A stretch of DNA of 20,000 nt from an uncultured virus (IMG/VR IMGVR_UViG_3300038828_000030) (lineage: Duplodnaviria; Heunggongvirae; Uroviricota; Caudoviricetes). The stretch is from IMG/VR virus record IMGVR_UViG_3300038828_000030. The stretch is one strand, 5' to 3'. A model generated the notes under the pieces. That model made no database searches. It had not been told where the DNA came from and worked only from the letters and a program-made list of their open reading frames with translations. Below, one piece after another: positions 4,992-19,125 of this stretch. The position numbers and the translations under genes are program-made. Position 1 is the first letter of the stretch. Every line of letters begins with the position of its first letter.

Positions 4992-5008
4992 TCAACCACG
5001 AGGAAACC

Positions 5009-5998: not shown

Positions 5999-7785
5999 AG
6001 ACCCTGACCCTGCAACAAGGATCGCCCGAATGGGCTGCTCACCGCGCTCGAAGCCTAAACGCCAGCGAGCTATCTGCGGCCATGGGCCTGTCCTCGTACA
6101 TCACCAGGTCGGCCCTCGTCAAACAGAAGGCGACAGGCATCGCCCCAGAGATTGACGCGGCCACTCAACACCGATTCAACAAGGGCCACGAGTTCGAGGC
6201 TATCGCGCGTCCATGGGCAGAGGAAATCATCGGGGAAGAACTTTTCCCTGTCGTACTGGCTGGCGAAGTTGATGCCCTGCCGCTGTCTGCGTCGCTTGAT
6301 GGACAAACCTTGACGGGTGATGTGACGTGGGAACACAAGAGCGGCAACGCGACGCTTCTGGCCCGTTTGGATGCTGGCGTCATCCCTGACGAATATCACC
6401 CCCAGATGGAGCAGGGCCTGCTGCTGTCTGGTGCAACTCGGTGCCTATTCATGGCGTCCAGTGGAGACCGTGAAGCCATGCGCTATGCGTGGTACGAGTC
6501 AAATCCTGAGTTGCGAGCCAAGATTGTTCCGACCTGGAGGCAATTTCAAGCGGATGTTGCCGCCTACGTCCCCACCGAACCCGCCGCGCCCGTCATGGCC
6601 GCGCCCATCGAAAGCCTGCCCGCCGTCGTGGTGCAGGTGCAAGGCGCGCTGACCGTTGGCGGCAACCTGGACGCCTTCGGTCAGGCCCTGCGCTCGTTCA
6701 TCGAGCGCATCCCCGCAAGACCGGCAACTGATATTGAGTTCGCAAACTGCGAAGCCGCCTGCAAGGCGCTGAAGAGGGCCGAGGACGCACTGACCCAGGC
6801 CGAAGACGGCGCGCTGGCGCAGATCAGCGACGTGGAGCTGATGCGCCGCACCGTGGCCGACCTCAAGGAGCTGGCACGGTCAACCCGCCTCGCGACTGAA
6901 AAGCTGGTCAAAGCCGAGAAAGACGCGCGCCGCACCGAGAAGGTCATGGCCGCGCGCCAAGCGTTTGAAACCCACGTCACGCGCCTGCAGATGGACATCA
7001 AAGGCGTGCGCCTGATCGTGCCCATGCCAGACTTCGGCGGCTCCATCAAGGGCCTGAGCAGCCTGGCAAGCATCGACGACAAGCTGACCGCCGCGCTGAT
7101 CGCCGGCAAGGCCGAGGCCAACACCCTCGCCAGCCGGATCGCGGGCAACCTGCAAACGCTCGACAGCGTGCCGCAGTACGCCCACCTGTTTGCTGACCGG
7201 CAGGAGCTGGCCTACAAGGACGCCGAGACGCTTGAGCTGCTGATGCAGAAGCGCGTCGATGCCGAGCGCGACCGCATCGAAGCCGAGCGCCAGCGTATCC
7301 AGCAGGACGAGGAACGCAAGGCCCGCGAAGCCGCCGAGCGCCAGGCCGAAGCGGAGCGCCAGCGCATCCGCGCCGAAGAGCAGCACAAGGCGCAGATGGA
7401 AGTCGCCGAAAAGCTGAAGGCTGAACAAGAGGCCGAGCGCCAAGCCAACGAAGACCGCCGCCGCATAGAAGCCCAGGCCGCAGAAGCCAAGAAGGCCGAA
7501 GCCGCCGCCCAGGCACAGCAGGCGATCCAGCAGGCCGAAGCGCCAGCCGCGCCAGCACCGGCGCCATGGGACGCCGACGAGGCGGCCACGCTCAAGTTGG
7601 GCGATGTGAACGCGCGCCTGGCGCCGATCCACGTCACCGCTGATGGCCTGCGCTCCATCGGCATTGAGCCGGCCGGGCGCGAGAAGAACGCGACGCTGTA
7701 CCGCGAAAGCCAGTTCGCGGAAATCTGCCAGGTGCTGGTGCTGCACCTGCAATCCGTCGTGCAGCCATCCGAGGCCACGGCATGA
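5995..7785 (+). CDS. YqaJ-like (lambda Exo family) exonuclease with long coiled-coil C-terminus
   Basis: QGSPEWAAHR, ASE, GHEFE, SASLDG, EHK, QMEQGL motifs; adjacent to bet. Confidence 0.92.
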   Translation: MKTLTLQQGSPEWAAHRARSLNASELSAAMGLSSYITRSALVKQKATGIAPEIDAATQHRFNKGHEFEAIARPWAEEIIGEELFPVVLAGEVDALPLSASLDGQTLTGDVTWEHKSGNATLLARLDAGVIPDEYHPQMEQGLLLSGATRCLFMASSGDREAMRYAWYESNPELRAKIVPTWRQFQADVAAYVPTEPAAPVMAAPIESLPAVVVQVQGALTVGGNLDAFGQALRSFIERIPARPATDIEFANCEAACKALKRAEDALTQAEDGALAQISDVELMRRTVADLKELARSTRLATEKLVKAEKDARRTEKVMAARQAFETHVTRLQMDIKGVRLIVPMPDFGGSIKGLSSLASIDDKLTAALIAGKAEANTLASRIAGNLQTLDSVPQYAHLFADRQELAYKDAETLELLMQKRVDAERDRIEAERQRIQQDEERKAREAAERQAEAERQRIRAEEQHKAQMEVAEKLKAEQEAERQANEDRRRIEAQAAEAKKAEAAAQAQQAIQQAEAPAAPAPAPWDADEAATLKLGDVNARLAPIHVTADGLRSIGIEPAGREKNATLYRESQFAEICQVLVLHLQSVVQPSEATA

Positions 7786-8182: not shown

Positions 8183-8413
8183 ATGAAAAACACTGATCAA
8201 TCGCGCCCGCCGTTCAAAATCAGCGGCGTCGCCACCATCAAGCACCTGAATGTCCGCAAGGAAGGCCCGGAGGACGAGAAGGTTCTGGCTGACGATGCTG
8301 CGCCCGAATGCACTTGTGCAGCGAAAGACATGACCTTTGGCCGATGCTGCAAGGTGACGCCCAACGCCCCGAGTTCAGCCGACGCGAAGCGGTCGGCTGG
8401 AATGAACTGTTAG
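8183..8413 (+). CDS. Chimeric hypothetical protein: unique N-terminus fused to the 81-bp repeat peptide and attC read-through
   Basis: C-terminal ADDAAPECTCAAKDMTFGRCCKVTPNA is identical to that of ORFs 11049 and 14053. Confidence 0.6.
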   Translation: MKNTDQSRPPFKISGVATIKHLNVRKEGPEDEKVLADDAAPECTCAAKDMTFGRCCKVTPNAPSSADAKRSAGMNC

Positions 8414-8415
8414 AA
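8359..8415 (-). other. attC site 1 (57 bp)
   Basis: Minus strand TTCTAAC-AGTTC-ATTCCAGC...GCTGAAC-TCGGGGC-GTTGGGC; imperfect hairpin with bulged bases. Confidence 0.85.
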
Positions 8416-8425
8416 GGCTGTATCC

Positions 8426-8662
8426 ATGAACAGACCAGAGCGAATTTACAACGTGAGCCAAACGCAATTGAGCGTTGCTAGGTTTTACGGCGGCTGCAAA
8501 TTCAACGGCGCGGATTATCACTACGACGCCGAAAGCGACACGCTGACACGCATGGACATTTGGCAAGCGCGATGCGCCAGCAGCAAGAAAGAAGCCGCGA
8601 AAGCAGCAAAGGCAGAGCGAGAAAAATGGATGAAGGCACAGCAGAGTTTTGCCGCCTTCTAA
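8426..8662 (+). CDS. Cassette-borne hypothetical protein (78 aa)
   Basis: Fills the interval between attC1 and attC2; stop TAA inside the TTCTAAC box. Confidence 0.8.
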   Translation: MNRPERIYNVSQTQLSVARFYGGCKFNGADYHYDAESDTLTRMDIWQARCASSKKEAAKAAKAEREKWMKAQQSFAAF

Positions 8663-8709
8663 CGCCGGAAATAAGCCGCCGCAGGTCGGCCTTGATTGAC
8701 CTGTTATGC
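8657..8709 (-). other. attC site 2 (53 bp)
   Basis: Minus strand GCATAAC-AGGTC-AATCAAGG...GCTTATT-TCCGGC-GTTAGAA. Confidence 0.85.
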
Positions 8710-8729
8710 AGAAACTTTAGGAATACCAA

Positions 8730-8981
8730 ATGGACACGATACAGCAAGAGCTTCGCAAGCCAGCGCACTATCTGAGCATGAGAAAGCGCGAGCAGGCTGC
8801 AAACTACATTGATAAGTTGCAAGCCGCCTTGAACCAGTACAGCGCAGACGAAGTGATGCTTACGCACCAATCAACTATCGCAGCGCAGGCCGAGCAAATC
8901 GAAGCCTTGACGCAGGCGATAGTCGAGCGAGACGCGATCATTTCGCAGTACATCGCAGCACTTGGCTATGTTGCGGCATAA
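8730..8981 (+). CDS. Cassette-borne coiled-coil hypothetical protein (83 aa)
   Basis: AGGA RBS after attC2; stop TAA inside GCATAAC. Confidence 0.75.
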   Translation: MDTIQQELRKPAHYLSMRKREQAANYIDKLQAALNQYSADEVMLTHQSTIAAQAEQIEALTQAIVERDAIISQYIAALGYVAA

Positions 8982-9027
8982 CCCGTGATTAGGCGACAAG
9001 CCCGCCCCGCGCCACGTCGCCTAATCA
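8976..9027 (-). other. attI-like simple site with a 12-bp inverted repeat
   Basis: Minus strand GTCGCCTAAT-CACGG-GTTATGC (L box, 5 bp, R box); TGATTAGGCGAC/GTCGCCTAATCA perfect inverted repeat; no second GTT/AAC box, so not an attC. Confidence 0.55.
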
Positions 9028-9079
9028 GCCACTGGCGCAAGCAAACCCCAATAGGCAAACCTAAAAAACCGAGGACGTA

Positions 9080-9748
9080 ATGACCCCGCTTGTACGTGAA
9101 ATGGCAGCCATCGTGCCGGAACCAGAAACCGCGCACTGGTTCGATCTGGGCACGATCCCCGGGCGCATCGAAGCCCAACGGGTGTATTGGGATGACATTC
9201 GCCACATGCCGTACCCGCGCACCATCGTGGTATTCATCACCGACAAAGGCAGCAAGGCCGCATGCTGGATACAGGCATCGGAACATTCGCTGTCCATGGC
9301 CTACCTGATGGTCGATCCAGGCAAAGCGCCTCGCTTTTCCATCCCCATTGTCATCACCGAGGTGGATGGCGAGCTGCGCTATGAAGCCAAGGGCGGCGAC
9401 GGCAAGGCCGCTGCGGGCGTGCTGTGTGCCATCGCCAAGCGCCTGCAAACCGCCAGTGCCGCCTACCGCCCCGAGTCGATTGGCACACCAGCGCAGCAGC
9501 GCAAGCGCGCGGCCAAAGGCAAGAGGCCACTGTTTGCATGGCACACCGTCACCATCGGCGCTACGCCCAAAGTAGCCATTGCTACGTCAGATGTAGCTGG
9601 CACGCACGCCAGCCCACGCGCGCACGACAGGCGCGGGCACTGGCGCACCTACCCCAGCGGCAAACGCAGCTGGGTCAAGCACTGCCGCGTCGGCAATCCT
9701 GCGGACGGGGTGGTGTTCAAGGATTACCGGATCAGGAGCGAGAAATGA
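9080..9748 (+). CDS. Uncharacterised phage protein with HASPRAHDRRGHWR motif (222 aa)
   Basis: GAGGA RBS; conserved-looking C-terminal HxRRGHWR motif. Confidence 0.8.
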   Translation: MTPLVREMAAIVPEPETAHWFDLGTIPGRIEAQRVYWDDIRHMPYPRTIVVFITDKGSKAACWIQASEHSLSMAYLMVDPGKAPRFSIPIVITEVDGELRYEAKGGDGKAAAGVLCAIAKRLQTASAAYRPESIGTPAQQRKRAAKGKRPLFAWHTVTIGATPKVAIATSDVAGTHASPRAHDRRGHWRTYPSGKRSWVKHCRVGNPADGVVFKDYRIRSEK

Positions 9749-10017
9749 GCACATACACACCACCCGACAAGATCGAGATTTACGCCGCCGCGCTGAAAAG
9801 CGACATCAACTCTGAGCGCTTCCAGGTTGTGGAGAGCGGCAGGCTCGAAACCTACTGGATCGGCACGGTATATGGCGGCGGCGTCGCAACCGAGCGCGGG
9901 CACAAATTTCGGACTGCAGAAGAGGCGTGGGACAACGCAAGCAAATTTGTGGAGCGCTGCGCGGAGATCGTCAGCGAGCGCGACCGCGCAGCCAAGGCAG
10001 GAGATCAGCATGGCTGA
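9745..10017 (+). CDS. Hypothetical phage protein (MSTYTPPDK..., 90 aa)
   Basis: AGGAG RBS, ATGA overlap. Confidence 0.7.
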   Translation: MSTYTPPDKIEIYAAALKSDINSERFQVVESGRLETYWIGTVYGGGVATERGHKFRTAEEAWDNASKFVERCAEIVSERDRAAKAGDQHG

Positions 10018-10108
10018 AAGCACGGTCTGGCGCGTGATGCACCCAGACGGCTCGCGCACGGTGGTGGGCGGTGGTTGCTCGGAGAAAGACAATGTCGCGT
10101 GCGCTTGA
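10010..10108 (+). CDS. Small hypothetical protein (MAESTVWRV..., 32 aa)
   Basis: AGGAG RBS; overlaps both neighbours. Confidence 0.45.
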   Translation: MAESTVWRVMHPDGSRTVVGGGCSEKDNVACA

Positions 10109-10700
10109 TGTGGTGACGCTGACCGGCGAGGAATACGACGACCTCATGGAATGCAAAGAGATGGTCGCCTCACTACTAGCCCAGTTGAGCGCCGCGAAAG
10201 ACCGAATTGCCGAATTGACGCCAGTTGCTGGAATGGACTGGCGGGAAACGATGCAGCGCATGCTGACACGCATGGAGGAAACAGACCGCTGGCCTGCGAT
10301 ATGCGACGAGGCGCGGGCCGTCCTGTCGCTGGCGAATGATGCCACCAGGGAGCCTGCCGCCTACCTGTGGGGCGGCTGCCTCTGGCGCACGGACGAAATG
10401 GGGCGCGGCAGACCTGGGGCAGTCGAACTGTATCGAGCGCAAACGCCGCTGACCGATGCCGACATTACCGCATTGCTTCCGATATGGCAGCAGGGATCAT
10501 GGACGCTGCCAGACTACGGCAGATGGGTAGCGCGGGCCGTCGAGCGGGCGCACGGGATCAAGACATCGCACAACCTATGCCTATCCTGCGGGCACAGCAT
10601 CGATGCCCACGACAAGCAATACGGCTGCGCAGAGGACGGGTGCGATTGCGAGACGCCCAACGATCAGCATAACCGGCCCGCTTCAGCGGGTCCGGGTTGA
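10092..10700 (+). CDS. Mosaic hypothetical phage protein with C-terminal CxSCGH...C...CxC motif, reading into attC4
   Basis: GGAG RBS before ATG 10092; ARAVERAHGI motif; stop inside attC4. Confidence 0.7.
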   Translation: MSRALDVVTLTGEEYDDLMECKEMVASLLAQLSAAKDRIAELTPVAGMDWRETMQRMLTRMEETDRWPAICDEARAVLSLANDATREPAAYLWGGCLWRTDEMGRGRPGAVELYRAQTPLTDADITALLPIWQQGSWTLPDYGRWVARAVERAHGIKTSHNLCLSCGHSIDAHDKQYGCAEDGCDCETPNDQHNRPASAGPG

Positions 10701-10714
10701 TGCGCCAGTTGGGC
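10655..10714 (-). other. attC site 4 (60 bp)
   Basis: Minus strand GCCCAAC-TGGCG-CATCAACC...GGTTATG-CTGATC-GTTGGGC. Confidence 0.88.
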
Positions 10715-10728
10715 GCGGGAGGTGAGAG

Positions 10729-11052
10729 ATGGGGACATACGTTGTTTGGTGCCCGGACCTGGGCCAGGATCAGGAAGACGGTGCGACGATCCCGGCGACC
10801 GACCCCGCCGATGCGGCGGAAGGGTGGGCCGAATGGCACGACCGCAGCAGTGCCGAATACCGGATTGCCAGCGGGCGCGAGGAGATCGTGATCGTCCGCG
10901 ACGTTGAGACAGGCGAGCAGCGCGAATGGATTGTGCGCGGCGAGGCGATGCCGTACTACACGGCGCAGCCTGGGGAGTCCGCGACGATCCGGGCGCAAGT
11001 GGCGCCGGGCCGATGGGAGGATGTTCCTAGACGTAGCGAGGCCAACGAATGA
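10729..11052 (+). CDS. Cassette-borne acidic hypothetical protein (107 aa)
   Basis: GGAGG RBS just after attC4. Confidence 0.8.
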   Translation: MGTYVVWCPDLGQDQEDGATIPATDPADAAEGWAEWHDRSSAEYRIASGREEIVIVRDVETGEQREWIVRGEAMPYYTAQPGESATIRAQVAPGRWEDVPRRSEANE

Positions 11053-11417
11053 AATGGCAGCCGATTGAAACCGCACCTACAGACGGCACCCGCATCCTGC
11101 TGCGCGGCAGGGGCGGCAAGATTGCGGATGGGCACTACGGACAGCCGGATGGGTGGGCAAACCCGAAGCGTTTTGTCTGGCCGTACATCCATGCTAATCC
11201 GACGCACTGGGCTCCGCTCCCGTTGATTGCTGCTGCGCCGGAAAACAAGAAATTGCGTGCCGCCATCGCAAAAGCAACAGGACGTGTGGTCGCTGACGAT
11301 GCTGCGCCCGAATGCACTTGTGCAGCGAAAGACATGACCTTTGGCCGATGCTGCAAGGTGACGCCCAACGCCCCGAGTTCAGCCGACGCGAAGCGGTCGG
11401 CTGGAATGAACTGTTAG
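11049..11417 (+). CDS. DUF551-like (WQPIETAP...PTHW) mosaic phage protein, reading through the attC1 copy
   Basis: WQPIETAPxDGTRILL...PTHWAPLP motif, then LIAAAPE/AAIAKA and a Cys-rich tail. Confidence 0.75.
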   Translation: MKWQPIETAPTDGTRILLRGRGGKIADGHYGQPDGWANPKRFVWPYIHANPTHWAPLPLIAAAPENKKLRAAIAKATGRVVADDAAPECTCAAKDMTFGRCCKVTPNAPSSADAKRSAGMNC

Positions 11418-11419
11418 AA
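11363..11419 (-). other. attC site 1, duplicate copy
   Basis: Identical to 8359-8415. Confidence 0.85.
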
Positions 11420-11429
11420 GGCTGTATCC

Positions 11430-11666
11430 ATGAACAGACCAGAGCGAATTTACAACGTGAGCCAAACGCAATTGAGCGTTGCTAGGTTTTACGGCGGCTG
11501 CAAATTCAACGGCGCGGATTATCACTACGACGCCGAAAGCGACACGCTGACACGCATGGACATTTGGCAAGCGCGATGCGCCAGCAGCAAGAAAGAAGCC
11601 GCGAAAGCAGCAAAGGCAGAGCGAGAAAAATGGATGAAGGCACAGCAGAGTTTTGCCGCCTTCTAA
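11430..11666 (+). CDS. Duplicate of 8426-8662
   Basis: Identical translation. Confidence 0.8.
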   Translation: MNRPERIYNVSQTQLSVARFYGGCKFNGADYHYDAESDTLTRMDIWQARCASSKKEAAKAAKAEREKWMKAQQSFAAF

Positions 11667-11713
11667 CGCCGGAAATAAGCCGCCGCAGGTCGGCCTTGAT
11701 TGACCTGTTATGC
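11661..11713 (-). other. attC site 2, duplicate copy
   Basis: Identical to 8657-8709. Confidence 0.85.
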
Positions 11714-11733
11714 AGAAACTTTAGGAATACCAA

Positions 11734-11985
11734 ATGGACACGATACAGCAAGAGCTTCGCAAGCCAGCGCACTATCTGAGCATGAGAAAGCGCGAGCAGG
11801 CTGCAAACTACATTGATAAGTTGCAAGCCGCCTTGAACCAGTACAGCGCAGACGAAGTGATGCTTACGCACCAATCAACTATCGCAGCGCAGGCCGAGCA
11901 AATCGAAGCCTTGACGCAGGCGATAGTCGAGCGAGACGCGATCATTTCGCAGTACATCGCAGCACTTGGCTATGTTGCGGCATAA
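11734..11985 (+). CDS. Duplicate of 8730-8981
   Basis: Identical translation. Confidence 0.75.
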   Translation: MDTIQQELRKPAHYLSMRKREQAANYIDKLQAALNQYSADEVMLTHQSTIAAQAEQIEALTQAIVERDAIISQYIAALGYVAA

Positions 11986-12031
11986 CCCGTGATTAGGCGA
12001 CAAGCCCGCCCCGCGCCACGTCGCCTAATCA
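11980..12031 (-). other. attI-like site, duplicate copy
   Basis: Identical to 8976-9027. Confidence 0.55.
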
Positions 12032-12083
12032 GCCACTGGCGCAAGCAAACCCCAATAGGCAAACCTAAAAAACCGAGGACGTA

Positions 12084-12752
12084 ATGACCCCGCTTGTACG
12101 TGAAATGGCAGCCATCGTGCCGGAACCAGAAACCGCGCACTGGTTCGATCTGGGCACGATCCCCGGGCGCATCGAAGCCCAACGGGTGTATTGGGATGAC
12201 ATTCGCCACATGCCGTACCCGCGCACCATCGTGGTATTCATCACCGACAAAGGCAGCAAGGCCGCATGCTGGATACAGGCATCGGAACATTCGCTGTCCA
12301 TGGCCTACCTGATGGTCGATCCAGGCAAAGCGCCTCGCTTTTCCATCCCCATTGTCATCACCGAGGTGGATGGCGAGCTGCGCTATGAAGCCAAGGGCGG
12401 CGACGGCAAGGCCGCTGCGGGCGTGCTGTGTGCCATCGCCAAGCGCCTGCAAACCGCCAGTGCCGCCTACCGCCCCGAGTCGATTGGCACACCAGCGCAG
12501 CAGCGCAAGCGCGCGGCCAAAGGCAAGAGGCCACTGTTTGCATGGCACACCGTCACCATCGGCGCTACGCCCAAAGTAGCCATTGCTACGTCAGATGTAG
12601 CTGGCACGCACGCCAGCCCACGCGCGCACGACAGGCGCGGGCACTGGCGCACCTACCCCAGCGGCAAACGCAGCTGGGTCAAGCACTGCCGCGTCGGCAA
12701 TCCTGCGGACGGGGTGGTGTTCAAGGATTACCGGATCAGGAGCGAGAAATGA
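12084..12752 (+). CDS. Duplicate of 9080-9748
   Basis: Identical translation. Confidence 0.8.
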   Translation: MTPLVREMAAIVPEPETAHWFDLGTIPGRIEAQRVYWDDIRHMPYPRTIVVFITDKGSKAACWIQASEHSLSMAYLMVDPGKAPRFSIPIVITEVDGELRYEAKGGDGKAAAGVLCAIAKRLQTASAAYRPESIGTPAQQRKRAAKGKRPLFAWHTVTIGATPKVAIATSDVAGTHASPRAHDRRGHWRTYPSGKRSWVKHCRVGNPADGVVFKDYRIRSEK

Positions 12753-13021
12753 GCACATACACACCACCCGACAAGATCGAGATTTACGCCGCCGCGCTGA
12801 AAAGCGACATCAACTCTGAGCGCTTCCAGGTTGTGGAGAGCGGCAGGCTCGAAACCTACTGGATCGGCACGGTATATGGCGGCGGCGTCGCAACCGAGCG
12901 CGGGCACAAATTTCGGACTGCAGAAGAGGCGTGGGACAACGCAAGCAAATTTGTGGAGCGCTGCGCGGAGATCGTCAGCGAGCGCGACCGCGCAGCCAAG
13001 GCAGGAGATCAGCATGGCTGA
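12749..13021 (+). CDS. Duplicate of 9745-10017
   Basis: Identical translation. Confidence 0.7.
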   Translation: MSTYTPPDKIEIYAAALKSDINSERFQVVESGRLETYWIGTVYGGGVATERGHKFRTAEEAWDNASKFVERCAEIVSERDRAAKAGDQHG

Positions 13022-13112
13022 AAGCACGGTCTGGCGCGTGATGCACCCAGACGGCTCGCGCACGGTGGTGGGCGGTGGTTGCTCGGAGAAAGACAATGTC
13101 GCGTGCGCTTGA
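13014..13112 (+). CDS. Duplicate of 10010-10108
   Basis: Identical translation. Confidence 0.45.
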   Translation: MAESTVWRVMHPDGSRTVVGGGCSEKDNVACA

Positions 13113-13704
13113 TGTGGTGACGCTGACCGGCGAGGAATACGACGACCTCATGGAATGCAAAGAGATGGTCGCCTCACTACTAGCCCAGTTGAGCGCCGCG
13201 AAAGACCGAATTGCCGAATTGACGCCAGTTGCTGGAATGGACTGGCGGGAAACGATGCAGCGCATGCTGACACGCATGGAGGAAACAGACCGCTGGCCTG
13301 CGATATGCGACGAGGCGCGGGCCGTCCTGTCGCTGGCGAATGATGCCACCAGGGAGCCTGCCGCCTACCTGTGGGGCGGCTGCCTCTGGCGCACGGACGA
13401 AATGGGGCGCGGCAGACCTGGGGCAGTCGAACTGTATCGAGCGCAAACGCCGCTGACCGATGCCGACATTACCGCATTGCTTCCGATATGGCAGCAGGGA
13501 TCATGGACGCTGCCAGACTACGGCAGATGGGTAGCGCGGGCCGTCGAGCGGGCGCACGGGATCAAGACATCGCACAACCTATGCCTATCCTGCGGGCACA
13601 GCATCGATGCCCACGACAAGCAATACGGCTGCGCAGAGGACGGGTGCGATTGCGAGACGCCCAACGATCAGCATAACCGGCCCGCTTCAGCGGGTCCGGG
13701 TTGA
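13096..13704 (+). CDS. Duplicate of 10092-10700
   Basis: Identical translation. Confidence 0.7.
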   Translation: MSRALDVVTLTGEEYDDLMECKEMVASLLAQLSAAKDRIAELTPVAGMDWRETMQRMLTRMEETDRWPAICDEARAVLSLANDATREPAAYLWGGCLWRTDEMGRGRPGAVELYRAQTPLTDADITALLPIWQQGSWTLPDYGRWVARAVERAHGIKTSHNLCLSCGHSIDAHDKQYGCAEDGCDCETPNDQHNRPASAGPG

Positions 13705-13718
13705 TGCGCCAGTTGGGC
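13659..13718 (-). other. attC site 4, duplicate copy
   Basis: Identical to 10655-10714. Confidence 0.88.
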
Positions 13719-13732
13719 GCGGGAGGTGAGAG

Positions 13733-14056
13733 ATGGGGACATACGTTGTTTGGTGCCCGGACCTGGGCCAGGATCAGGAAGACGGTGCGACGATCCCGGC
13801 GACCGACCCCGCCGATGCGGCGGAAGGGTGGGCCGAATGGCACGACCGCAGCAGTGCCGAATACCGGATTGCCAGCGGGCGCGAGGAGATCGTGATCGTC
13901 CGCGACGTTGAGACAGGCGAGCAGCGCGAATGGATTGTGCGCGGCGAGGCGATGCCGTACTACACGGCGCAGCCTGGGGAGTCCGCGACGATCCGGGCGC
14001 AAGTGGCGCCGGGCCGATGGGAGGATGTTCCTAGACGTAGCGAGGCCAACGAATGA
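13733..14056 (+). CDS. Duplicate of 10729-11052
   Basis: Identical translation. Confidence 0.8.
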   Translation: MGTYVVWCPDLGQDQEDGATIPATDPADAAEGWAEWHDRSSAEYRIASGREEIVIVRDVETGEQREWIVRGEAMPYYTAQPGESATIRAQVAPGRWEDVPRRSEANE

Positions 14057-14379
14057 AATGGCAGCCGATTGAAACCGCACCTACAGACGGCACCCGCATC
14101 CTGCTGCGCGGCAGGGGCGGCAAGATTGCGGATGGGCACTACGGACAGCCGGATGGGTGGGCAAACCCGAAGCGTTTTGTCTGGCCGTACATCCATGCTA
14201 ATCCGACGCACTGGGCTCCGCTCCCGTTGATTGCTGCTGCGCCGGAAAACAAGAAATTGCGTGCCGCCATCGCAAAAGCAACAGGACGTGTGGTCGCTGA
14301 CGATGCTGCGCCCGAATGCACTTGTGCAGCGAAAGACATGACCTTTGGCCGATGCTGCAAGGTGACGCCCAACGCCTGA
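14053..14379 (+). CDS. DUF551-like protein, second copy, with a shorter C-terminus set by attC5
   Basis: Identical to 11049 up to ...VTPNA, then TGA inside attC5. Confidence 0.75.
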   Translation: MKWQPIETAPTDGTRILLRGRGGKIADGHYGQPDGWANPKRFVWPYIHANPTHWAPLPLIAAAPENKKLRAAIAKATGRVVADDAAPECTCAAKDMTFGRCCKVTPNA

Positions 14380-14422
14380 ATTAAGCCGCGCCGAAGGCGT
14401 CGGCTTGAATGAATTGTTAGGG
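14367..14422 (-). other. attC site 5 (56 bp, aadA-type)
   Basis: Minus strand CCCTAAC-AATTC-ATTCAAGC-CGACGCC-TTC-GGCGCG-GCTTAAT-TCAGGC-GTTGGGC. Confidence 0.95.
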
Positions 14423-14448
14423 CGCATTGCCCGAAAAGGAAAGCAAAA

Positions 14449-14784
14449 ATGCTTGATGTGAAAATTGTCCTCGACGCAGTGCCGGACTACTTGTTCAAGG
14501 CGTGCGGCGCAGAAACGCAAGATGAGCGCGACACCGTCGCGGCATGCGTGCGGACGTATGCCCGCGACTGCATCACCGCGACGCTTCTCACCATTGAAGA
14601 TGGGCCGATCTTCAAGGATGCCTGGCGCTACCGCGTGATGGTGGAAAACGGCGCAGTACCCACGCAATGGCACGAAATCATCAGCGAACAGCGCGAAGGA
14701 TTCCGGGCACGCGCGGACGCCGCGTTTGACGATTTCGTTTCCGAGGAACTTTCGGATTACGAGTACGGTGAACATGCGCCCTAA
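14449..14784 (+). CDS. Cassette-borne hypothetical protein (111 aa)
   Basis: AAGGA RBS; stop TAA inside CCCTAAC. Confidence 0.8.
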   Translation: MLDVKIVLDAVPDYLFKACGAETQDERDTVAACVRTYARDCITATLLTIEDGPIFKDAWRYRVMVENGAVPTQWHEIISEQREGFRARADAAFDDFVSEELSDYEYGEHAP

Positions 14785-14838
14785 CGGCTGAGATAACCTG
14801 CGCGCTTTAGCGCGTCCGAGTTGATTGATGGGTTAGGA
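14779..14838 (-). other. attC site 6 (60 bp)
   Basis: + strand CCCTAAC-GGCTGA-GATAACC...AGTTGATT-GATGG-GTTAGGA. Confidence 0.8.
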
Positions 14839-14844
14839 GTAAGC

Positions 14845-15066
14845 ATGAAAAACGAAGAAATTTTTTACACGCACAAACAAAACGCTGTGGTGGATAACAG
14901 CGGAAAGCAGATAGCGATTGTTCTGCCTAGTAATTGCACTATGCGCGAAGCACGGGCCATGGCTGCTTTTGCTGCGCAGCAAATGAATCATGAGCTGCGA
15001 GCGAAAAAATTGAAGAAATCTAACGCCAAGGTAAGCGGCGGCGGCGCTTTTCCGCCGTCCGCTTGA
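14845..15066 (+). CDS. Cassette-borne hypothetical protein (MKNEEIF..., 73 aa), reads into attC7
   Basis: AGGAG RBS overlaps the end of attC6; visibly AT-richer than flanks. Confidence 0.75.
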   Translation: MKNEEIFYTHKQNAVVDNSGKQIAIVLPSNCTMREARAMAAFAAQQMNHELRAKKLKKSNAKVSGGGAFPPSA

Positions 15067-15080
15067 CCGACGTGTTATGC
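15018..15080 (-). other. attC site 7 (63 bp)
   Basis: + strand ATCTAAC-GCCAA-GGTAAGC-GGCGGCGG...CCGCCGTCC-GCTTGACC-GACGT-GTTATGC. Confidence 0.88.
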
Positions 15081-15097
15081 CTTTTGAGGATGATGCG

Positions 15098-15481
15098 ATG
15101 AAGAAGAAATACGACCCGCTGAAAGTGGAAAAGAGCGACCACCCTGACCTTGTTGGCGGGATTGTGTGGGCCGACTGCGAACTGGACTGGATTCGCGCCT
15201 ACGGGACGCGCTGCTACAACCACGGCAACGCAAAAGGCATGGAAGCCGGAAGGCTGCTGTTTGAAGAACCGAAAGTCGGCGCTGGCGATACGGCGGTAGT
15301 GACGAAGGAAATGATCGGCGCTGCGCACGACGTGATGCTGGCGAAGGGCGATTTCGTTCTGTCCGCCGCGCTGTTGGAGCGCATCTATTTGGCGATGGCT
15401 GCGAAGAGGCATAACACCCGATTAGACGACACCGCAGCCGCCATTGACGCCGCGCGCAGCGCAGGAGGGCAAGAGCCATGA
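15098..15481 (+). CDS. Cassette-borne hypothetical protein (MKKKYDPL...), reads through the attI-like site
   Basis: GAGGA RBS after attC7; ATGA overlap downstream. Confidence 0.75.
   Translation: MKKKYDPLKVEKSDHPDLVGGIVWADCELDWIRAYGTRCYNHGNAKGMEAGRLLFEEPKVGAGDTAVVTKEMIGAAHDVMLAKGDFVLSAALLERIYLAMAAKRHNTRLDDTAAAIDAARSAGGQEP
15409..15430 (-). other. Second attI-like simple site
   Basis: Minus strand GTCGTCTAAT-CGGGT-GTTATGC; same GCATAAC-N5-ATTAGRCGAC pattern as 8976-8997. Confidence 0.55.
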
Positions 15482-15942
15482 CAACTGACACCCGTCCCCT
15501 GGAGCCGACAGACGACGAGTTAGACGAACTGCGTCAAGCGAACAGCGGGCGACTGAACTTCGTCACGTTTCGTGAGTTCCGAGTAATTGCCCGCGCAGTC
15601 CTTGCCAAGTGGGGCACTCCCGCCACTGTGGGGGTGGAGCCGGTGGCGCGACTGGCGGTTGGGAAAACAAAAGGTGGCGTTTCGCTCACTCACATAGCCG
15701 AGCCAGCGGCCTTTCAGCTTCCAGAAGGCATGTATGCCCTCTACACCCCCCAGCAGCCCACCCAAGCCGTGCCGCCTGTAGGGCGGGAGCCGTTGCCATT
15801 CACTCCACGACAGCGCGAACGCCTGTTCAAAAACCGCCCGACCAATGTCGGCAAGGACTTGGCGCTGGCCGACTGGCATCGCGTGGTGGAATTTATCGAG
15901 GTCGCACACGGCATCAAAGGAGGCCAGCATGGCACTGAGTGA
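15478..15942 (+). CDS. Mosaic hypothetical phage protein (154 aa; ARAVLAKWG, EVAHGI motifs)
   Basis: GGAGG upstream, ATGA overlap. Confidence 0.75.
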   Translation: MTTDTRPLEPTDDELDELRQANSGRLNFVTFREFRVIARAVLAKWGTPATVGVEPVARLAVGKTKGGVSLTHIAEPAAFQLPEGMYALYTPQQPTQAVPPVGREPLPFTPRQRERLFKNRPTNVGKDLALADWHRVVEFIEVAHGIKGGQHGTE

Positions 15943-16207
15943 CGAACTGGAAGCACTGGCAAAGCGCCACGGTGCACTGAGCTACCGCAACCGCGCAGAC
16001 ACGCAGAACCCGGCCTTCGGGTTTTCGGTGGCGGGGCTGGAAAGCCTTCTGGCCGAAGTCCGCAAGCGGGATGAGGCGCTGATCCGCCAGCTTGTCGAGG
16101 CGCTGGAGGATTTTGACGACGCGGGGCCAATTGGCGAGGGCTGGAAATCAGACCGGCTGTTATCGCTGCTCGCATCCGCCCGTGCGCGGCTGGAGGGCAA
16201 GCCATGA
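15929..16207 (+). CDS. Hypothetical phage protein (MALSDELE..., 92 aa)
   Basis: AGGAGG RBS; ATGA overlap downstream. Confidence 0.75.
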   Translation: MALSDELEALAKRHGALSYRNRADTQNPAFGFSVAGLESLLAEVRKRDEALIRQLVEALEDFDDAGPIGEGWKSDRLLSLLASARARLEGKP

Positions 16208-16494
16208 CCCACGACGAGATCATGGCGATGGCGCGCGAGGCTGGGTTCCGGACGGGGCAAATCAACCTGTCCAATGGCCCCCCTGTGCCGTTCATCGCCC
16301 CGGCATCCGGGACGAGCTGCATGTTCGAGCTGGAACGCTTCGCCGCCCTGGTAGCTTCCGCCGAGCGCGAGGCGTGCGCGGCGCTGATCGAGAGCACGAC
16401 AGAGCGCAGCAGATGGATTCGCTGCGGCATCAACGGCACGCCCATAGAGCCGTGCCAGTACGCCGCAGCGATCCGCGCAAGGGGCAAGCCATGA
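16204..16494 (+). CDS. Hypothetical phage protein (MTHDEIMAMAREAG...LERFAALV...EREACA...AAAIRARG)
   Basis: GGAGG RBS; motif pattern common in small betaproteobacterial phage ORFs. Confidence 0.8.
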   Translation: MTHDEIMAMAREAGFRTGQINLSNGPPVPFIAPASGTSCMFELERFAALVASAEREACAALIESTTERSRWIRCGINGTPIEPCQYAAAIRARGKP

Positions 16495-16583
16495 GCCGCC
16501 GCGCCCGCACCCGGCGCGACAAGCGCCAGCCCATCGCCCCGAGTTCACCGGCTGCGAAGCAGTCCGGTGGAATGAATGGTTAG
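16491..16583 (+). CDS. Short ORF MSRRARTRRDKRQP..., interrupted by and reading into attC9
   Basis: ATGA overlap; after ~14 codons it enters the attC. Confidence 0.4.
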   Translation: MSRRARTRRDKRQPIAPSSPAAKQSGGMNG

Positions 16584-16585
16584 CG
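16529..16585 (-). other. attC site 9 (57 bp) with a non-canonical R' box GATGGGC
   Basis: + strand GCCCATC-GCCCCGA-GTTCACC-GGCTGC-GAA-GCAGTCC-GGTGGAAT-GAATG-GTTAGCG. Confidence 0.8.
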
Positions 16586-16603
16586 AACTGAAAGGATGAA
16601 GAG

Positions 16604-16783
16604 ATGGACTTGGACGACGTAAAAGAAATCGTAGCCAGGGCGACTGACAACAATTACGAAGAAGTCGATATTGTGTGCCTCCAGTGGCTGGAAGGCATTA
16701 CGTATGGTCATGGAAAAGATGGCGAGACGGCTCGAAAGTTGCTCGCTATTGTGCGGGAACTCATTGATATTGATGCAGGCTAA
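16604..16783 (+). CDS. Cassette-borne hypothetical protein (59 aa, MDLDDVKEIVARATDNNYEEV...)
   Basis: AAGGA RBS after attC9; stop TAA inside GGCTAAC; below the ORF-track cutoff. Confidence 0.7.
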   Translation: MDLDDVKEIVARATDNNYEEVDIVCLQWLEGITYGHGKDGETARKLLAIVRELIDIDAG

Positions 16784-16833
16784 CGCCTGAGATAACCGGC
16801 TGCGCAGCAGTCCGGTTGATGGACGGGTTAGGC
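16778..16833 (-). other. attC site 10 (56 bp)
   Basis: + strand GGCTAAC-GCCTGA-GATAACC-GGCTGC-GCA-GCAGTCC-GGTTGATG-GACGG-GTTAGGC. Confidence 0.9.
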
Positions 16834-16862
16834 GCGCGGTTGATTGACGAAAGGACAGACGA

Positions 16863-17195
16863 ATGCACCCGAGAGAGAAAGCGGCTATTGCCGCAACCCT
16901 GAGCGATGCCGGACTGCTGGACCGCGTGCGCGCCGTGGCTGGCCGCGACGTTGGCGACCCGCTGAACAACGCGCAGGACAGCGTGGCGCTGCGCGAGCAG
17001 TTCGACCTGACGGTTGAGTTCACGCACAGCAGCGTGATGGCGTTCAACGATGACGGCGTGTGCGCGACGCTGCGCTGCCACGCGCCCGACTCGCAACAGT
17101 GGTCGCGGCGTGCCGCGTGCGTGGCGGTGGCCTCGATGTGGACCCCGGCCATTGGCAAAGCCGCGCGGGCGGCAAGCGCCCAACGCCTGAATTAA
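16863..17195 (+). CDS. Cassette-borne hypothetical phage protein (110 aa; DPLNNAQDSVAL...RRA motif)
   Basis: AAGGA RBS; stop inside attC11. Confidence 0.75.
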   Translation: MHPREKAAIAATLSDAGLLDRVRAVAGRDVGDPLNNAQDSVALREQFDLTVEFTHSSVMAFNDDGVCATLRCHAPDSQQWSRRAACVAVASMWTPAIGKAARAASAQRLN

Positions 17196-17233
17196 GCCGC
17201 GCCGAAGGCGTCGGCTTGAATTGCTTGTTAGAT
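17178..17233 (-). other. attC site 11 (56 bp, near-identical to attC5)
   Basis: First 44 nt identical to 14367-14410; ends TGCTT-GTTAGAT. Confidence 0.93.
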
Positions 17234-17258
17234 GGCTGGTGGAGAAACGCGAGAACCT

Positions 17259-17360
17259 ATGAACCGAGTGATTTTCGGAGACTGCCCGACAAAACCGCAT
17301 GGGCTTTGCCGGGTAAGTGTACGAAATCAGCGTACGGATGATCTGTCAAGGATTACTTGA
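17259..17360 (+). pseudogene. Truncated ORF starting MNRVIFGDC (N4/N6 DNA methylase-like N-terminus)
   Basis: IxxGDC start typical of beta-class amino-MTases; sequence unrelated after 9 codons, stop at codon 34. Confidence 0.4.
17285..17313. terminator. Imperfect hairpin between convergent operons (possible terminator)
   Basis: CCCGACAAAACC-GCAT-GGGCTTTGCCGGG; no clear U-tract. Confidence 0.3.
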
Positions 17361-18003
17361 CTGCTGGCCTCATTGCTTCGCGGGCGGCGTCGTAGTCCCG
17401 CTCGCAGGCGAGTCCTGCGGCATGAGCGCGGTCAGCCGCGTCTGCCAGGATTCCCGCTCGCTGGTCAGCGCGGCCGAGCACGTCGGCGAGCACACCGATG
17501 GCATCACCGGCTGGCGGCTGGTGTCCGGCAGCGGCGGGATTTGCGCCTGGCGTGCCGTCAGCGCGATAGCGTTGGACGAGGGTGGCGAGCTGGTCGCGCA
17601 GGCGGTGCTCAGCAGCGCGAGCACGATCACGGTCAGCAGCGAGGGCAGATTGGACACGTTGAGACTCCTTGGCGTTGGCTTCTAGGGTTGCGGTCAGGGA
17701 CTGCTCTTTGGCGGCGATGGCGCGCTCGCGCTCCAGCGCCTGCTGGCGGGCGTCGGATTCGGCCTTGGCGTAGTCGCCGACCAACTTGTCGATACGGGAT
17801 TCGGCCTGCGCCAGCTTGACCTGGACGCCGGCCGTGATCTCGCGTTGGCCTACAAACGCGGCGCCCAGCACGCCAAAGGCAATCGTCCAGGCCAGCGCCG
17901 ACCACGCGCGCGGCGCGACAAAGTGAGCGGCCACGGCCAGGCCGAACGCGGCCAGGATGGCGGTGTAGCCGGCGGTGCCGGTGAGGAAATTCAGGACGCC
18001 CAT
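17353..18003 (-). CDS. Rz-like i-spanin
   Basis: N-terminal hydrophobic segments, long coiled coil, C-terminal ADRAHAAGLACERDYDA; downstream of endolysin; GGAG before ATG 18003. Confidence 0.85.
   Translation of the reverse strand: MGVLNFLTGTAGYTAILAAFGLAVAAHFVAPRAWSALAWTIAFGVLGAAFVGQREITAGVQVKLAQAESRIDKLVGDYAKAESDARQQALERERAIAAKEQSLTATLEANAKESQRVQSALAADRDRARAAEHRLRDQLATLVQRYRADGTPGANPAAAGHQPPAGDAIGVLADVLGRADQRAGILADAADRAHAAGLACERDYDAAREAMRPAVK
17370..17657 (-). CDS. Rz1-like o-spanin lipoprotein embedded in the Rz gene
   Basis: AGGAG RBS, lipobox LSTAC, Pro-rich, CSPTC; nested in another frame. Confidence 0.8.
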   Translation of the reverse strand: MSNLPSLLTVIVLALLSTACATSSPPSSNAIALTARQAQIPPLPDTSRQPVMPSVCSPTCSAALTSERESWQTRLTALMPQDSPASGTTTPPAKQ

Positions 18004-18073
18004 AGGTCGCTCCAGTACGAGGCTGCCGCTAGCCACCACGCGGCGCAGTGCATGAAGATCATTCCCATAGCGA

Positions 18074-18796: not shown

Positions 18797-19125
18797 TTTT
18801 GTCCCCCCATGTGAGACTGGACCCACATCCACAGCGCTGCCGCCATTGCCAGCAGGGCTGACCATGCGCCGCCGCTCACCAGCTTTTCCAGCACGGCTAG
18901 GTTCAGAGCTTTGCGCGACTTCATCAGCTCGATCTGCTCCTTGTGGTACTCGCGGTGCAGGATGGGGTCGCCTTCGGGGAAGCCGGATAAAAAAATGGTG
19001 CGCACCTCCACGAACTTGGTGTCCATGTGCGCCACCAAGCGCTGCTCCATGTCGTCGAGGCGCGTCTCCACGAAGTCCGCGATGTCGCGCGGGTCGTTGG
19101 ATTCAGGACGGTTCTGGCGTGGCAC
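18793..19125 (-). CDS. Putative holin/lysis membrane protein (single C-terminal TM helix)
   Basis: Directly upstream of endolysin with ATGA overlap; FPEGDPILHREYH motif and hydrophobic C-terminus. Confidence 0.65.
   Translation of the reverse strand: MPRQNRPESNDPRDIADFVETRLDDMEQRLVAHMDTKFVEVRTIFLSGFPEGDPILHREYHKEQIELMKSRKALNLAVLEKLVSGGAWSALLAMAAALWMWVQSHMGGQK

Follow-up and report, generated by a model that had tools for sequence, protein, structure and literature searches.

Phages are known to carry CALINs, i.e. integrase-less arrays of attC sites with methyltransferase cassettes, and IntI1 has been shown to recombine phage attC sites with attI1 (Qi et al. 2023, PMC9892861). In the accessible portion of that paper attI is confined to complete integrons and to attI1 as the target in assays, and neither an attI-type head of an integrase-less phage array, nor an allelic series at such a head, nor inverted cassette ORFs are described. 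A distinct kind of target, attG, comprises double-stranded sites outside integrons at which IntI inserts cassettes; according to the available part of the preprint, these differ from attI in sequence and structure and require GWT only (Loot et al., bioRxiv 10.1101/2022.09.11.507474). The attI sites themselves are exemplified by attI1 of R100 (In2), which reads GCAGTCGCCCTAAAACAAAGTTAAAC and shows the order DR2 (GTTACGC), L box (GTCGCCCTAAA), 5 nt and R box (G^TTAAAC), in agreement with the L-5 bp-R layout given in the first-pass annotation, and by chromosomal sites such as L189, L202, L203 and L170 in the Burkholderiales family that holds the genome G006 (L013, labelled 'MAG: Ottowia sp.', belongs to G006). 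The stretch analysed here, 20 kb of DNA (the window), also bears integrase-less attC arrays with methyltransferase cassettes. Its source is a wastewater phage, and the stretch has two predicted attI-type landing sites but lacks an integrase.

We consider it probable that two motifs of the window are integron attI-type recombination sites on a phage with no integron integrase nearby. The comparisons show their polarity, their identity to chromosomal attI sequence, their geometry, an exact junction at site 1 that has been used repeatedly, and an integrase-free window. The motif GCATAAC-N5-ATTAGRCGAC, reported at positions 8976, 11980 and 15409, has exactly these three matches in the window at up to two mismatches, and chance is expected to supply none (mean 0.00 and maximum 0 in 200 dinucleotide-preserving shuffles). 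Site 1 (GCATAACCCGTGATTAGGCGAC, 8976-8997) recurs at 11980-12001, and site 2 (GCATAACACCCGATTAGACGAC) lies at 15409-15430 (Table 1). The 11980 copy exists, but it is not independent, since an exact repeat of the segment 8288-11372 lies 3004 bp further on, and two independent sites therefore remain. In run X1 the contig depths are 14.6 for the left flank, 48.2 for the 81-nt piece and 24.2 for the 3-kb unit; as X1 may be the source sample, these depths are not independent support for the duplication. On the minus strand, as had been quoted correctly, site 1 reads GTCGCCTAAT-CACGG-G^TTATGC and site 2 GTCGTCTAAT-CGGGT-G^TTATGC. The shared layout is thus an L box GTCG(C/T)CTAAT, a 5-nt spacer and an R box G^TTATGC, with the array to the left in window coordinates, and both sites conform to the simple attI plan, in which a short spacer separates the L box from an R box G^TTRRRY and the crossover falls at G^TT. 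Furthermore, each R box is the reverse complement, at 7 of 7 positions, of the 3' box of the preceding attC (attC b, 8703-8709, for site 1; attC e, 15074-15080, for site 2).

Table 1. Coordinates of the duplication, attC arrays, attI-type sites and associated genes in the window
Feature	Position	Strand	Remarks
Exact tandem duplication	8288-14376		unit 8288-11291; repeat 11292-14295; third copy of the first 81 nt 14296-14376
Array 1, attC a	8359-8415	+	71.1 bits; covariance model, + strand only
Array 1, attC b	8657-8709	+	50.9 bits; covariance model, + strand only
Array 1, cassette ORFs	8426-8662, 8730-8981	+	
Site 1, R box GTTATGC	8976-8982	-	predicted crossover 8981^8982; 8976-8981 is part of the first cassette
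Site 1, spacer CACGG (8983-8987) and L box (8988-8997)	8983-8997	-	L box equals a chromosomal attI L box
Site 1, R-box-like repeat ATTAGGCGAC within TGATTAGGCGAC	9016-9027	-	second arm of the 12-bp inverted repeat
Site 1, 15-mer TTTTAGGTTTGCCTA	9052-9066	-	exact match; with inverted pair TTTAGG..CCTA
AcrVA2-like gene	9080-9748	+	222 aa; position and orientation of intI
Short attC i	10655-10714, duplicate 13659-13718	+	nested R boxes; 25.6 bits, E 1.8e-4
Duplicate of site 1 with its R box, L box, repeat and 15-mer	11980-12070	-	from the tandem duplication
Array 2, attC c	14367-14422	+	78.7 bits; covariance model
Array 2, attC d	14779-14838	+	48.9 bits; covariance model
Array 2, attC e	15018-15080	+	57.3 bits; covariance model
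Array 2, cassette ORFs	14449-14784, 14845-15066, 15098-15481	+	
Fused ORF	15077-15481	+	cassette-e ORF through site 2 into a 22-codon backbone-gene tail; ATGA overlap onto a 154-aa gene
Site 2	15409-15430	-	L box as in L202 and L205; predicted crossover 15414^15415
Array 3, attC f, g, h	16529-16585, 16778-16833, 17178-17233	+	covariance model

The polarity of the arrays was read with a strand-specific covariance model (R1), trained mainly on the window's own sites with the short attC i outside the training set, which placed 12 of 12 window attCs on the plus strand (e.g. 17178-17233, with 69.4 bits on this strand versus 7.7 bits on the minus strand). These plus-strand sequences align with the bottom strands of the aadA1 attC of R100, in which the coding strand carries the bulged bases on its 5' arm, and of a Comamonas attC; the first attC away from intI in this Comamonas MAG integron is near-identical to the reverse complement of window attC c. 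As the recombinogenic bottom strand of the attCs is therefore the plus strand of the window, both motifs lie at the attI-proximal head of their arrays, which upholds the earlier proposal that, with the minus strand as the canonical top strand, they occupy the place where attI belongs. The cassette runs do end in the motifs, with attCs beginning at 8359 and 8657 before site 1 and at 14367, 14779 and 15018 before site 2, and in array 1 the 3' box of each attC, when reverse-complemented, gives the next 5' box. The cassette ORFs are antisense to the canonical cassette direction, and array 3 is headed by a whole attC rather than an attI-like site. With 12 attC matches, the 20 kb conform to a CALIN (at least two attCs and no integron integrase nearby). 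In all eight chromosomal loci with both attI and attCs, attI lies upstream on the strand opposite to the bottom-strand attC matches, and the same geometry is seen at both window sites and in the related loci L002, L004, L008 and L211. Among 20 further viral loci with the L+R pattern, attCs are in the right geometry in 11; as the pattern was drawn from the sites themselves, this geometry check is the only independent part of that comparison.

The 12-bp perfect inverted repeat pointed out earlier (8986-8997 and 9016-9027; TGATTAGGCGAC / GTCGCCTAATCA) is present, and with its 18-nt loop it gives site 1 a marked hairpin (fold z = -3.9). As this recalls the L''-loop-L' hairpin of attC, and as AAC, 5 nt and ATTAGG resemble the AAC, 6 nt and ATTAAG of the local attCs, one might regard the motifs as decayed attC halves, site 1 having lost its R'' box and site 2 all but one arm. 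We consider such an origin highly improbable: neither site scored as an attC with model R1 at E <= 10 with filters off, in the same scan that found the 12 attCs, site 1 has neither R'' box nor bulged bases, and the changes in its variant alleles in L004 and L002 break hairpin pairs with no compensating changes. Moreover, the L boxes match chromosomal attI and do not occur in the attCs of 154 attC-rich loci, and site 1 has the 15-mer of the intI side. Site 2 folds no better than shuffled sequence (z = 0.5 and 0.3); an attC identity was accordingly rejected for both sites. In the canonical orientation the sites are L'-R'-side sequences, so the earlier refuting condition, that the motif be the left half of an attC, does not apply. 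That the hairpin follows a stop codon directly, ahead of the next gene, would also suit a phage terminator or operator between modules, unrelated to integrons. This is scarcely credible, as a scan of 8600-9200 gave neither terminator-like nor sigma-70 promoter-like calls, site 2 lacks a fold, and the attI identity, the geometry and the junction polymorphism would be left unexplained. The second arm of the repeat contains a single R-box-like copy 18 nt upstream of the L box and may be a further binding site for integrase, as a counterpart of attI1 DR2. The order DR2, L box, 5 nt and R box of attI1 recurs at site 1. The DR-L-R order is also found in the phage sites L216, L221, L229 and L235. The window sites share the GTCGCC..TAA core with attI1, but only about 9 of 11 L-box bases; attI1 has two repeats whereas site 1 has one, and intI1 and Pc are absent from the window.

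By sequence, the attI-type sites are kin to the chromosomal attI sites introduced above. The L box GTCGCCTAAT is letter for letter that of L189, L207 and L083, and GTCGTCTAAT that of L202 and L205; L189 and L202 adjoin intI (the genes beside them score 472.5 and 466.7 bits on TIGR02249), and L205, L207 and L083 are orphan attI modules, all within the family holding G006. Both 10-mers are thus those of intI-adjacent attI sites, although such short similarity is weak evidence by itself, as one enzyme binds both kinds of site and the L' boxes of attC therefore look like attI L boxes. The pattern GTCG[CT]CTA[AT][AT]-N4-5-GTT[AG] occurs twice in the 154 attC-rich loci (400,506 nt), each time about 95 nt downstream of the 15-mer and hence in attI modules rather than attCs. 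The 15-mer itself, identical at site 1, is found with up to two mismatches in 7 of 34 intI-upstream regions, with attI 78-83 nt further on in each, and in five genomes it has 11 places at up to one mismatch versus 2 for the reversed control. The chromosomal sites have GTTAGGY as the R box at their crossover and, with respect to the attC arrays, lie in the same place and on the same strand as those of the window; site 1 further shares with them an upstream TTA..CGAC element and the 15-mer on the side of the divergent gene. The window sites differ from them in being phage-borne, in having, at site 1, the start of an AcrVA2-like gene where intI would be, and in their inverted cassette ORFs. At site 1 the 15-mer stands 54 nt from the L box, versus 78-83 nt in the chromosomal sites, and 13 nt upstream of the start codon (AcrVA2-like), versus 8-11 nt (intI). 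Judged by its sequence, site 1 is nearly a whole chromosomal-type attI region with intI replaced by the AcrVA2-like gene. The earlier description of the sites as minimal therefore fits the bare L+R of site 2, where neither upstream repeat nor 15-mer was detected, but not site 1, which keeps both.

The divergent gene beside site 1 has 335 homologues, and its naming follows a precomputed PF26125 assignment on the close ones and atlas clusters named AcrVA2-like; it had no match in the local Pfam. An adjacent divergent intI, as expected of attI, is thus replaced by this gene, and the earlier statement that no intI adjoins the sites is borne out throughout the window, as no recombinase family was found among its 94 frames of at least 110 aa. 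This absence applies to the 20 kb, and an integrase may lie elsewhere in the phage genome; of 12 viral records searched, one has an integron integrase, 19 kb from the site. In the family holding G006, 132 of 301 genomes have a match to TIGR02249 above its cut-off and so could supply an integrase.

The lack of an integrase would also be expected if the sites were relics of a once-acquired piece of chromosomal integron, with attI now inert and cassette differences due to phage homologous recombination or attC x attC exchange. Orphan attI modules without intI do occur in chromosomes (L204, L205, L206, L207 and L083). Both window sites, like five of the eight site 1 alleles, have a 5-nt spacer, against 4 nt in L009, L211, L002 and all 11 chromosomal attI sites read; the extra base could impair a tyrosine recombinase. 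Rearrangement not due to IntI has taken place nearby, namely the duplication mediated by the 81-nt repeat and truncated backbone genes (8183-8287 and 15416-15481), and the diversity at site 1 could stem from other genomes, with homologous recombination through the conserved flanks as the means of spread. The junction itself, however, makes an inert site unlikely. Eight loci (the window, L002, L003, L004, L008, L009, L010 and L211) have eight different left neighbours joined at xxxTAA^C, while to the right of site 1 they are 95-100% identical in DNA or 98-99% in protein. Exchange between attCs cannot change the cassette abutting attI, yet all eight loci differ exactly at TAA^C. This matches the crossover at 8981^8982 and the new cassettes in related phages foreseen in the first-pass annotation. 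The left neighbours include Mom, a C5 methylase and DUF5131, often a DNA-modification gene, and the six bases left of C vary among relatives (GCATAA, GCCTAA, TTCTAA and ATCTAA). The R box of site 1 agrees with the attC 3' box of its own first cassette at 7 of 7 positions in L004 as in the window. Finally, read depth in two independent studies is 3 to 9 times higher on the constant side than on any single first cassette: run X14 has a depth of 1022-1385 right of 8988 versus 141-174 for the window's first cassette, with a contig branch point exactly at 8988, and run X8 has 77 versus 26. These observations suggest cassette swapping at site 1 by a host integrase.

Site 2 is less secure, as it is internal to the fused ORF and lacks an allelic series; no close relatives with alternative cassettes there were found. 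With less certainty than for site 1, its sequence suggests a bare L+R simple site joined to a backbone-gene tail. The tail of the fused ORF, ending in AAIDAARSAGGQEP and a stop, matches those ending in AAIDAARKQGANHD in L005 and RLDAARKQGANHD in L006. The homologous tail in these loci seems to start just downstream of the site 2 L box, and homology of the window to L004 stops at 15415. The L box could partly be coding sequence. This position in a backbone-gene tail, with cassette-free homologues in L005 and L006, would be compatible with an attG-like secondary site, in which backbone coding sequence with G^TT and a passable left arm took an off-target IntI entry; the available part of the preprint cited above has IntI inserting cassettes at GWT sites genome-wide (bioRxiv 10.1101/2022.09.11.507474). 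We regard this as quite improbable for site 2, because attG requires GWT only, whereas GTCGTCTAAT (10-mer) and, in L205, CGGTGTCGTCTAAT (14-mer) are chromosomal attI sequence, and because site 2 and the site 1 allele of L002 both contain GCGGTGTCGNCTAATCGG, which suggests that the two sites share an ancestor. With their complete attI L boxes, neither window site has the GWT core without attI-like arms that defines attG. Relatives with ATTAGACGAC in an intact, cassette-free backbone gene would bear against site 2 as an attI, and relatives with an uninterrupted backbone gene containing CGATTAGACGAC at the place of site 2 would bear against the attG-like reading.

On the attI-type interpretation, a host IntI would act in trans, binding and cleaving the site as double-stranded DNA, and site 2 would still be active. 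During infection or lysogeny the host IntI would bind the double-stranded site and pair it with an attC folded from the plus strand, the bottom strand in canonical terms. One strand would be exchanged between A and C of AA^C (8981^8982 and 15414^15415), and replication would resolve the product, so that a cassette is gained or lost directly left of the site. As the cassette ORFs are antisense, we propose that phage early transcription may read the cassettes towards attI, and hence that no Pc promoter would be needed for their expression.

Comparison with chromosomal integrons supports, at the level of nucleotide sequence, reading both motifs as attI-type sites, strongly for site 1 (8976-8997) and moderately for site 2 (15409-15430). 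The underlying pattern reported by the first-pass annotation, GCATAAC-N5-ATTAGRCGAC, is indeed found at 8976, 11980 and 15409; a search tolerating up to two mismatches gives three matches, and 200 shuffled controls gave none at that tolerance. The copy at 11980 belongs to an exact 3004-bp tandem duplication (8288-11372 = 11292-14376; whole region 8288-14376), and the independent sites therefore number two. The duplication is bounded by an 81-nt piece present in three copies, which forms the common 3' end of ORFs 8183-8413 and 11049-11417 / 14053-14379, and unequal crossing-over between these repeats would generate it. In sequencing run X1, which may be the source sample, contig depths of 14.6, 48.2 and 24.2 fit 1:3:2 copies. 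ORFs 8183-8413 and 11049-11417 cross the 5' box and the entire hairpin of attC a, gaining an identical 14 residues (PSSADAKRSAGMNC), and ORF 8183-8287 resembles the truncated 5' part of a backbone gene to which the 81-nt piece has been joined.

The window is phage DNA, with the gene content listed in the table. No near relative was found in the GenBank phage collection, and the sole match of a distant GenBank phage search, phage P1, spanned 64 nt and was irrelevant. The segment 8650-9750 is present, whole or in part, in runs from 11 activated-sludge or wastewater studies. The hexapeptide-repeat gene contains an 18-nt unit repeated 26 times head-to-tail at 3799-4491, a tract that gives a collagen-like match in another frame.

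Features of the window and of the loci compared with it
Feature	Locus	Position	Strand	Detail
C5 methylase	window	512-2287	minus	
Hexapeptide-repeat gene	window	3724-4662	plus	
RecT	window	4988-5998	plus	
RecE/YqaJ-like exonuclease	window	5995-7785	plus	
Small genes	window	about 9 kb, after RecE/YqaJ-like exonuclease	plus	
Spanin, lysozyme, further lysis-region genes	window	17353-19125	minus	
attC matches	window	8359, 8657, 10655, 11363, 11661, 13659, 14367, 14779, 15018, 16529, 16778, 17178	plus	covariance model
Left neighbour of site 1	window			83-aa ORF
Left neighbour of site 1	L002			30-nt filler, then C5 methylase cassette
Left neighbour of site 1	L003			67-aa ORF
Left neighbour of site 1	L004			Mom-family gene
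Left neighbour of site 1	L008			84-aa ORF
Left neighbour of site 1	L009			ORF equal to window's own 14845-15066
Left neighbour of site 1	L010			DUF5131 gene
Left neighbour of site 1	L211			77-aa ORF
Chromosomal attI	L189			TGTCGCCTAATTCTAG^TTAGGT
Chromosomal attI	L202			CGTCGTCTAATTCCAG^TTAGTC
Chromosomal attI	L203, L170			GTCGTCTAAATCTAG^TTAGGC
15-mer and attI modules adjoining intI	L189, L191, L199, L202, L203, L169, L170			
15-mer and attI modules, orphan	L204-L207, L083			without intact intI, same genomes
Chromosomal arrays in ORF-orientation comparison	L083, L169, L191, L202-L204, L206, L207			
Further viral loci with arrays	L214, L216, L218, L219, L221, L222, L229, L230, L233-L235			

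The polarity of the arrays was established with an attC covariance model whose training set comprised 13 sites from the window and related loci and two reference attCs, entered as bottom strands. All of its 12 matches in the window lie on the plus strand; the model is strand-specific (7.7 bits on the opposite strand versus 69.4) and scores 25.6 bits at 10655/13659, an attC outside the training set. On the coding strand of aadA1 in R100, the two bulged bases of the aadA1 attC fall on the 5' arm, and the first attC away from intI (466.6 bits) in a Comamonas MAG integron is almost the exact reverse complement of attC c of the window. These references identify the plus strand of the window as the canonical bottom strand, on which the crossover of the window attCs reads RYYYAA^C. 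Hence the arrays run canonically from right to left, and both motifs lie at the attI-proximal head, as the first-pass annotation had proposed. Complementarity between a 3' box and the next 5' box was dropped as a polarity test, since either orientation predicts such pairing. The short attC at 10655-10714 and 13659-13718 has nested R boxes, an outer GCCCAAC..GTTGGGC enclosing an inner GCATAAC..GTTGATG, and bounds a two-gene cassette. A member of the attC e family at 1430-1550 of the related viral locus L211 has a loop about 60 bases longer.

The concern that the motifs might be halves of decayed attCs is countered by this model, which matches neither of them at E <= 10. Chromosomal integrons of bacteria point in the same direction. 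In the family holding the Burkholderiales genome G006, 132 of 301 sampled genomes encode an integron integrase that scores above the curated cut-off. Among the 34 intI-upstream regions examined in this family, seven contain the 15-mer TTTTAGGTTTGCCTA (up to two mismatches) at a distance of 8-11 nt from the start codon of intI, with an attI site 78-83 nt beyond it. Alignment with such bacterial attI sites had been suggested earlier, and in it the L box of site 1 equals that of L189, and the L box of site 2 that of L202, in every letter. Across 154 genome loci rich in attCs (400,506 nt), the combined L and R pattern has only two occurrences, each some 95 nt downstream of the 15-mer; the pattern marks attI modules, not attCs. 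The geometry of the sites agrees with that of all eight chromosomal loci having both attI and attC matches.

At site 1 the resemblance extends beyond the core boxes. The 222-aa gene, which has the same position and orientation as intI, is preceded at 13 nt from its start codon by an exact copy of the 15-mer (9052-9066). The 15-mer is rare, with 11 places at up to one mismatch in five genomes versus 2 for a reversed control. Each of the four extra copies examined precedes an attI-like site that lacks an intact intI beside it, and one such orphan module heads seven attCs. The arms of the 15-mer are palindromic (TTTAGG..CCTAAA), and it is found in one class of Burkholderiales integrons. The 12-bp inverted repeat noticed earlier at site 1 is perfect (fold z = -3.9), and its second arm, on the canonical strand, is the R-box-like ATTAGGCGAC upstream of L, an arrangement shared with attI1 of R100 (DR2, L, R). 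No fold was found at site 2, and scanning 8600-9200 revealed neither promoters nor terminators.

The alleles of related phages indicate that site 1 is used repeatedly. The 222-aa gene and the site 1 module recur at eight distinct loci, the window included. To the right of the site these are 95-100% identical in DNA or 98-99% identical in protein, and to the left of xxxTAA^C each has a different neighbour. It was at this junction, 8981^8982, that the first-pass annotation had suggested looking for new cassettes in related phages. The six bases preceding the C differ by cassette (GCATAA, GCCTAA, TTCTAA, ATCTAA), and in the window and L004 they exactly complement the 3' box of the same cassette's own attC. 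Contig depth to the right of 8988 is 1022-1385 in run X14, against 141-174 over the window's first cassette, and 77 against 26 in run X8, the two runs coming from different studies. One contig begins at 8988, and its loose end, CTAACAAGA, is the L009 and L211 allele. The spacer reads CACGG in five of the eight loci, TCTT in two and CGGC in one. A search for an empty allele, in which the 81-nt tail would be joined to the L box, matched L002 only. At 944-975 of this locus a 30-nt filler (GTGTTCTAGGGCGCAAAAGTGACGCCTAA), which resembles the end of the 81-nt repeat, separates the C5 methylase cassette from the attI-like site and is suggestive of a remnant of the ancestral flank of an unoccupied site. 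The AcrVA2-like module of L002 is followed almost directly by lysis genes (L002 2067-2155 versus window 10070-17379). L002 is thus wholly devoid of arrays 2 and 3 of the window. The interval between the AcrVA2-like module and the lysis genes is a hypervariable region.

Site 2 is less certain than site 1. Its features include the L box, the correct geometry, a breakpoint, and an R box complementing attC e at 7/7 positions; homology to L004 stops at 15415, where L004 has an ordinary attC. It contains neither the R-box-like repeat nor the 15-mer. The ORF around it (15077-15481) is a cassette ORF fused to the terminal 22 codons of a backbone gene, whose tail is recognisable in the distant relatives L005 and L006. 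The relatives found for the 154-aa gene that follows are confined to distant viral loci (31-59% identity), and no attC-like site was seen around its homologue in L005 or immediately upstream of those in L006 and L007. No match was obtained in a pattern search with the sequence flanking site 2 on the right, and neither a close relative of the region nor an allelic series for 15414^15415 was found. Site 2 and the site 1 allele found in L002 have GCGGTGTCGNCTAATCGG in common, suggesting shared ancestry of the two sites or exchange between them.

The window encodes no integrase, in line with the first-pass inference of sites without an adjacent intI: no recombinase family was detected in its 94 frames of at least 110 aa. 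The possibility that the 222-aa protein (gene at 9080-9748, plus strand) is a hidden recombinase was rejected, as it is a member of the AcrVA2-like family, with PF26125 precomputed on close homologues and atlas clusters so named; the local Pfam copy gave no match to it, and no relative was found in the genome contigs. From these two observations we infer that a host IntI acting in trans would be the simplest source of recombination.

The L and R pattern was recovered at 23 viral loci, comprising three known relatives and 20 others. Eleven of the latter have attC matches downstream on the opposite strand, none overlapping the site, and several of these have an R-box-like repeat directly upstream of L. 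The remaining nine, like locus L208, show no attC match in the right geometry; most of them, and L208 too, are rich in AT and seem to be matches by chance. In a search of 12 viral records (the 11 further loci and the record of L211), an integron integrase above the cut-off was found in one, G314 (record of L221; L236; 468 bits; 99% complete), and three records rated 96-100% complete gave no match. The G314 integrase is full and has its own attC matches, and a second, integrase-less array headed by an attI lies about 19 kb away.

The phage cassettes also differ in the orientation of their ORFs. Among cassettes of chromosomal arrays that have this type of attI, 22 of 23 carry their longest ORF on the canonical top strand. 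The 11 further viral arrays show the reverse, with 24 of 27 on the bottom strand, suggesting that phage cassettes form a distinct pool. For the window together with close relatives, the bottom strand is favoured in 14 of 19 cassettes by ORF length alone, a measure that leaves the coding strand of GC-rich window cassettes unsettled, and ribosome-binding sites, GC by codon position and family matches were added. In all seven single-ORF cassettes of the window, the plus (bottom) strand ORF has a ribosome-binding motif between a few and about 9 bases upstream, and in six of the seven GC3 is at least GC1. Family matches also back the plus strand (the methylase, Mom and DUF5131 cassettes, 10729-11052). 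Relative to the usual direction of cassettes, the ORFs in phage arrays are antisense.

Taken together, these observations can be accommodated in a tentative scenario, which we consider possible but somewhat doubtful as a whole, wherein Burkholderiales phages of wastewater maintain integrase-less 'phage integrons' that use host IntI in trans and draw on an inverted counter-defence cassette pool. The attI platforms, stripped of the integrase, would sit in an anti-defence region beside the AcrVA2-like gene and might be serviced by host IntI, plausibly when the SOS response induces intI and the prophage together. They would trade a separate pool of cassettes with ORFs inverted relative to attC, so that phage transcription would proceed through the ORFs in the direction of attI; were replication and the genes co-oriented, the lagging-strand template would also carry the recombinogenic strand. 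The cargo (Mom, C5 methylase, DUF5131 and small proteins of unknown kind) would serve counter-defence.

An integron is defined by intI, attI and Pc together, and integrase-less cassette arrays are known, including in phages. The excerpts of Qi et al. 2023 (PMC9892861) describe 17 integrase-less attC clusters in phages, report cassettes encoding methyltransferases, and show that phage attCs recombine in an IntI1-dependent manner; these excerpts mention attI only in complete integrons or as an assay target. According to part of the attG preprint, attG secondary sites need only GWT. In the literature retrieved on orphan or attI-like sites and inverted cassettes, no title or abstract opening mentions an attI heading an integrase-less phage array. 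A phage array headed by an attI-type site, with a repeatedly changed first cassette, would provide integrase-less arrays with a working entry point, and makes cassette traffic between host and phage testable with a simple assay. The inversion of the ORFs bears on the old question of how cassettes arise and why their orientation persists. The presence of DNA-modification cargo beside an anti-CRISPR-like gene links integron recombination to phage counter-defence, and such cargo, if its role is true, would mirror the stocking of defence systems by bacterial integrons.
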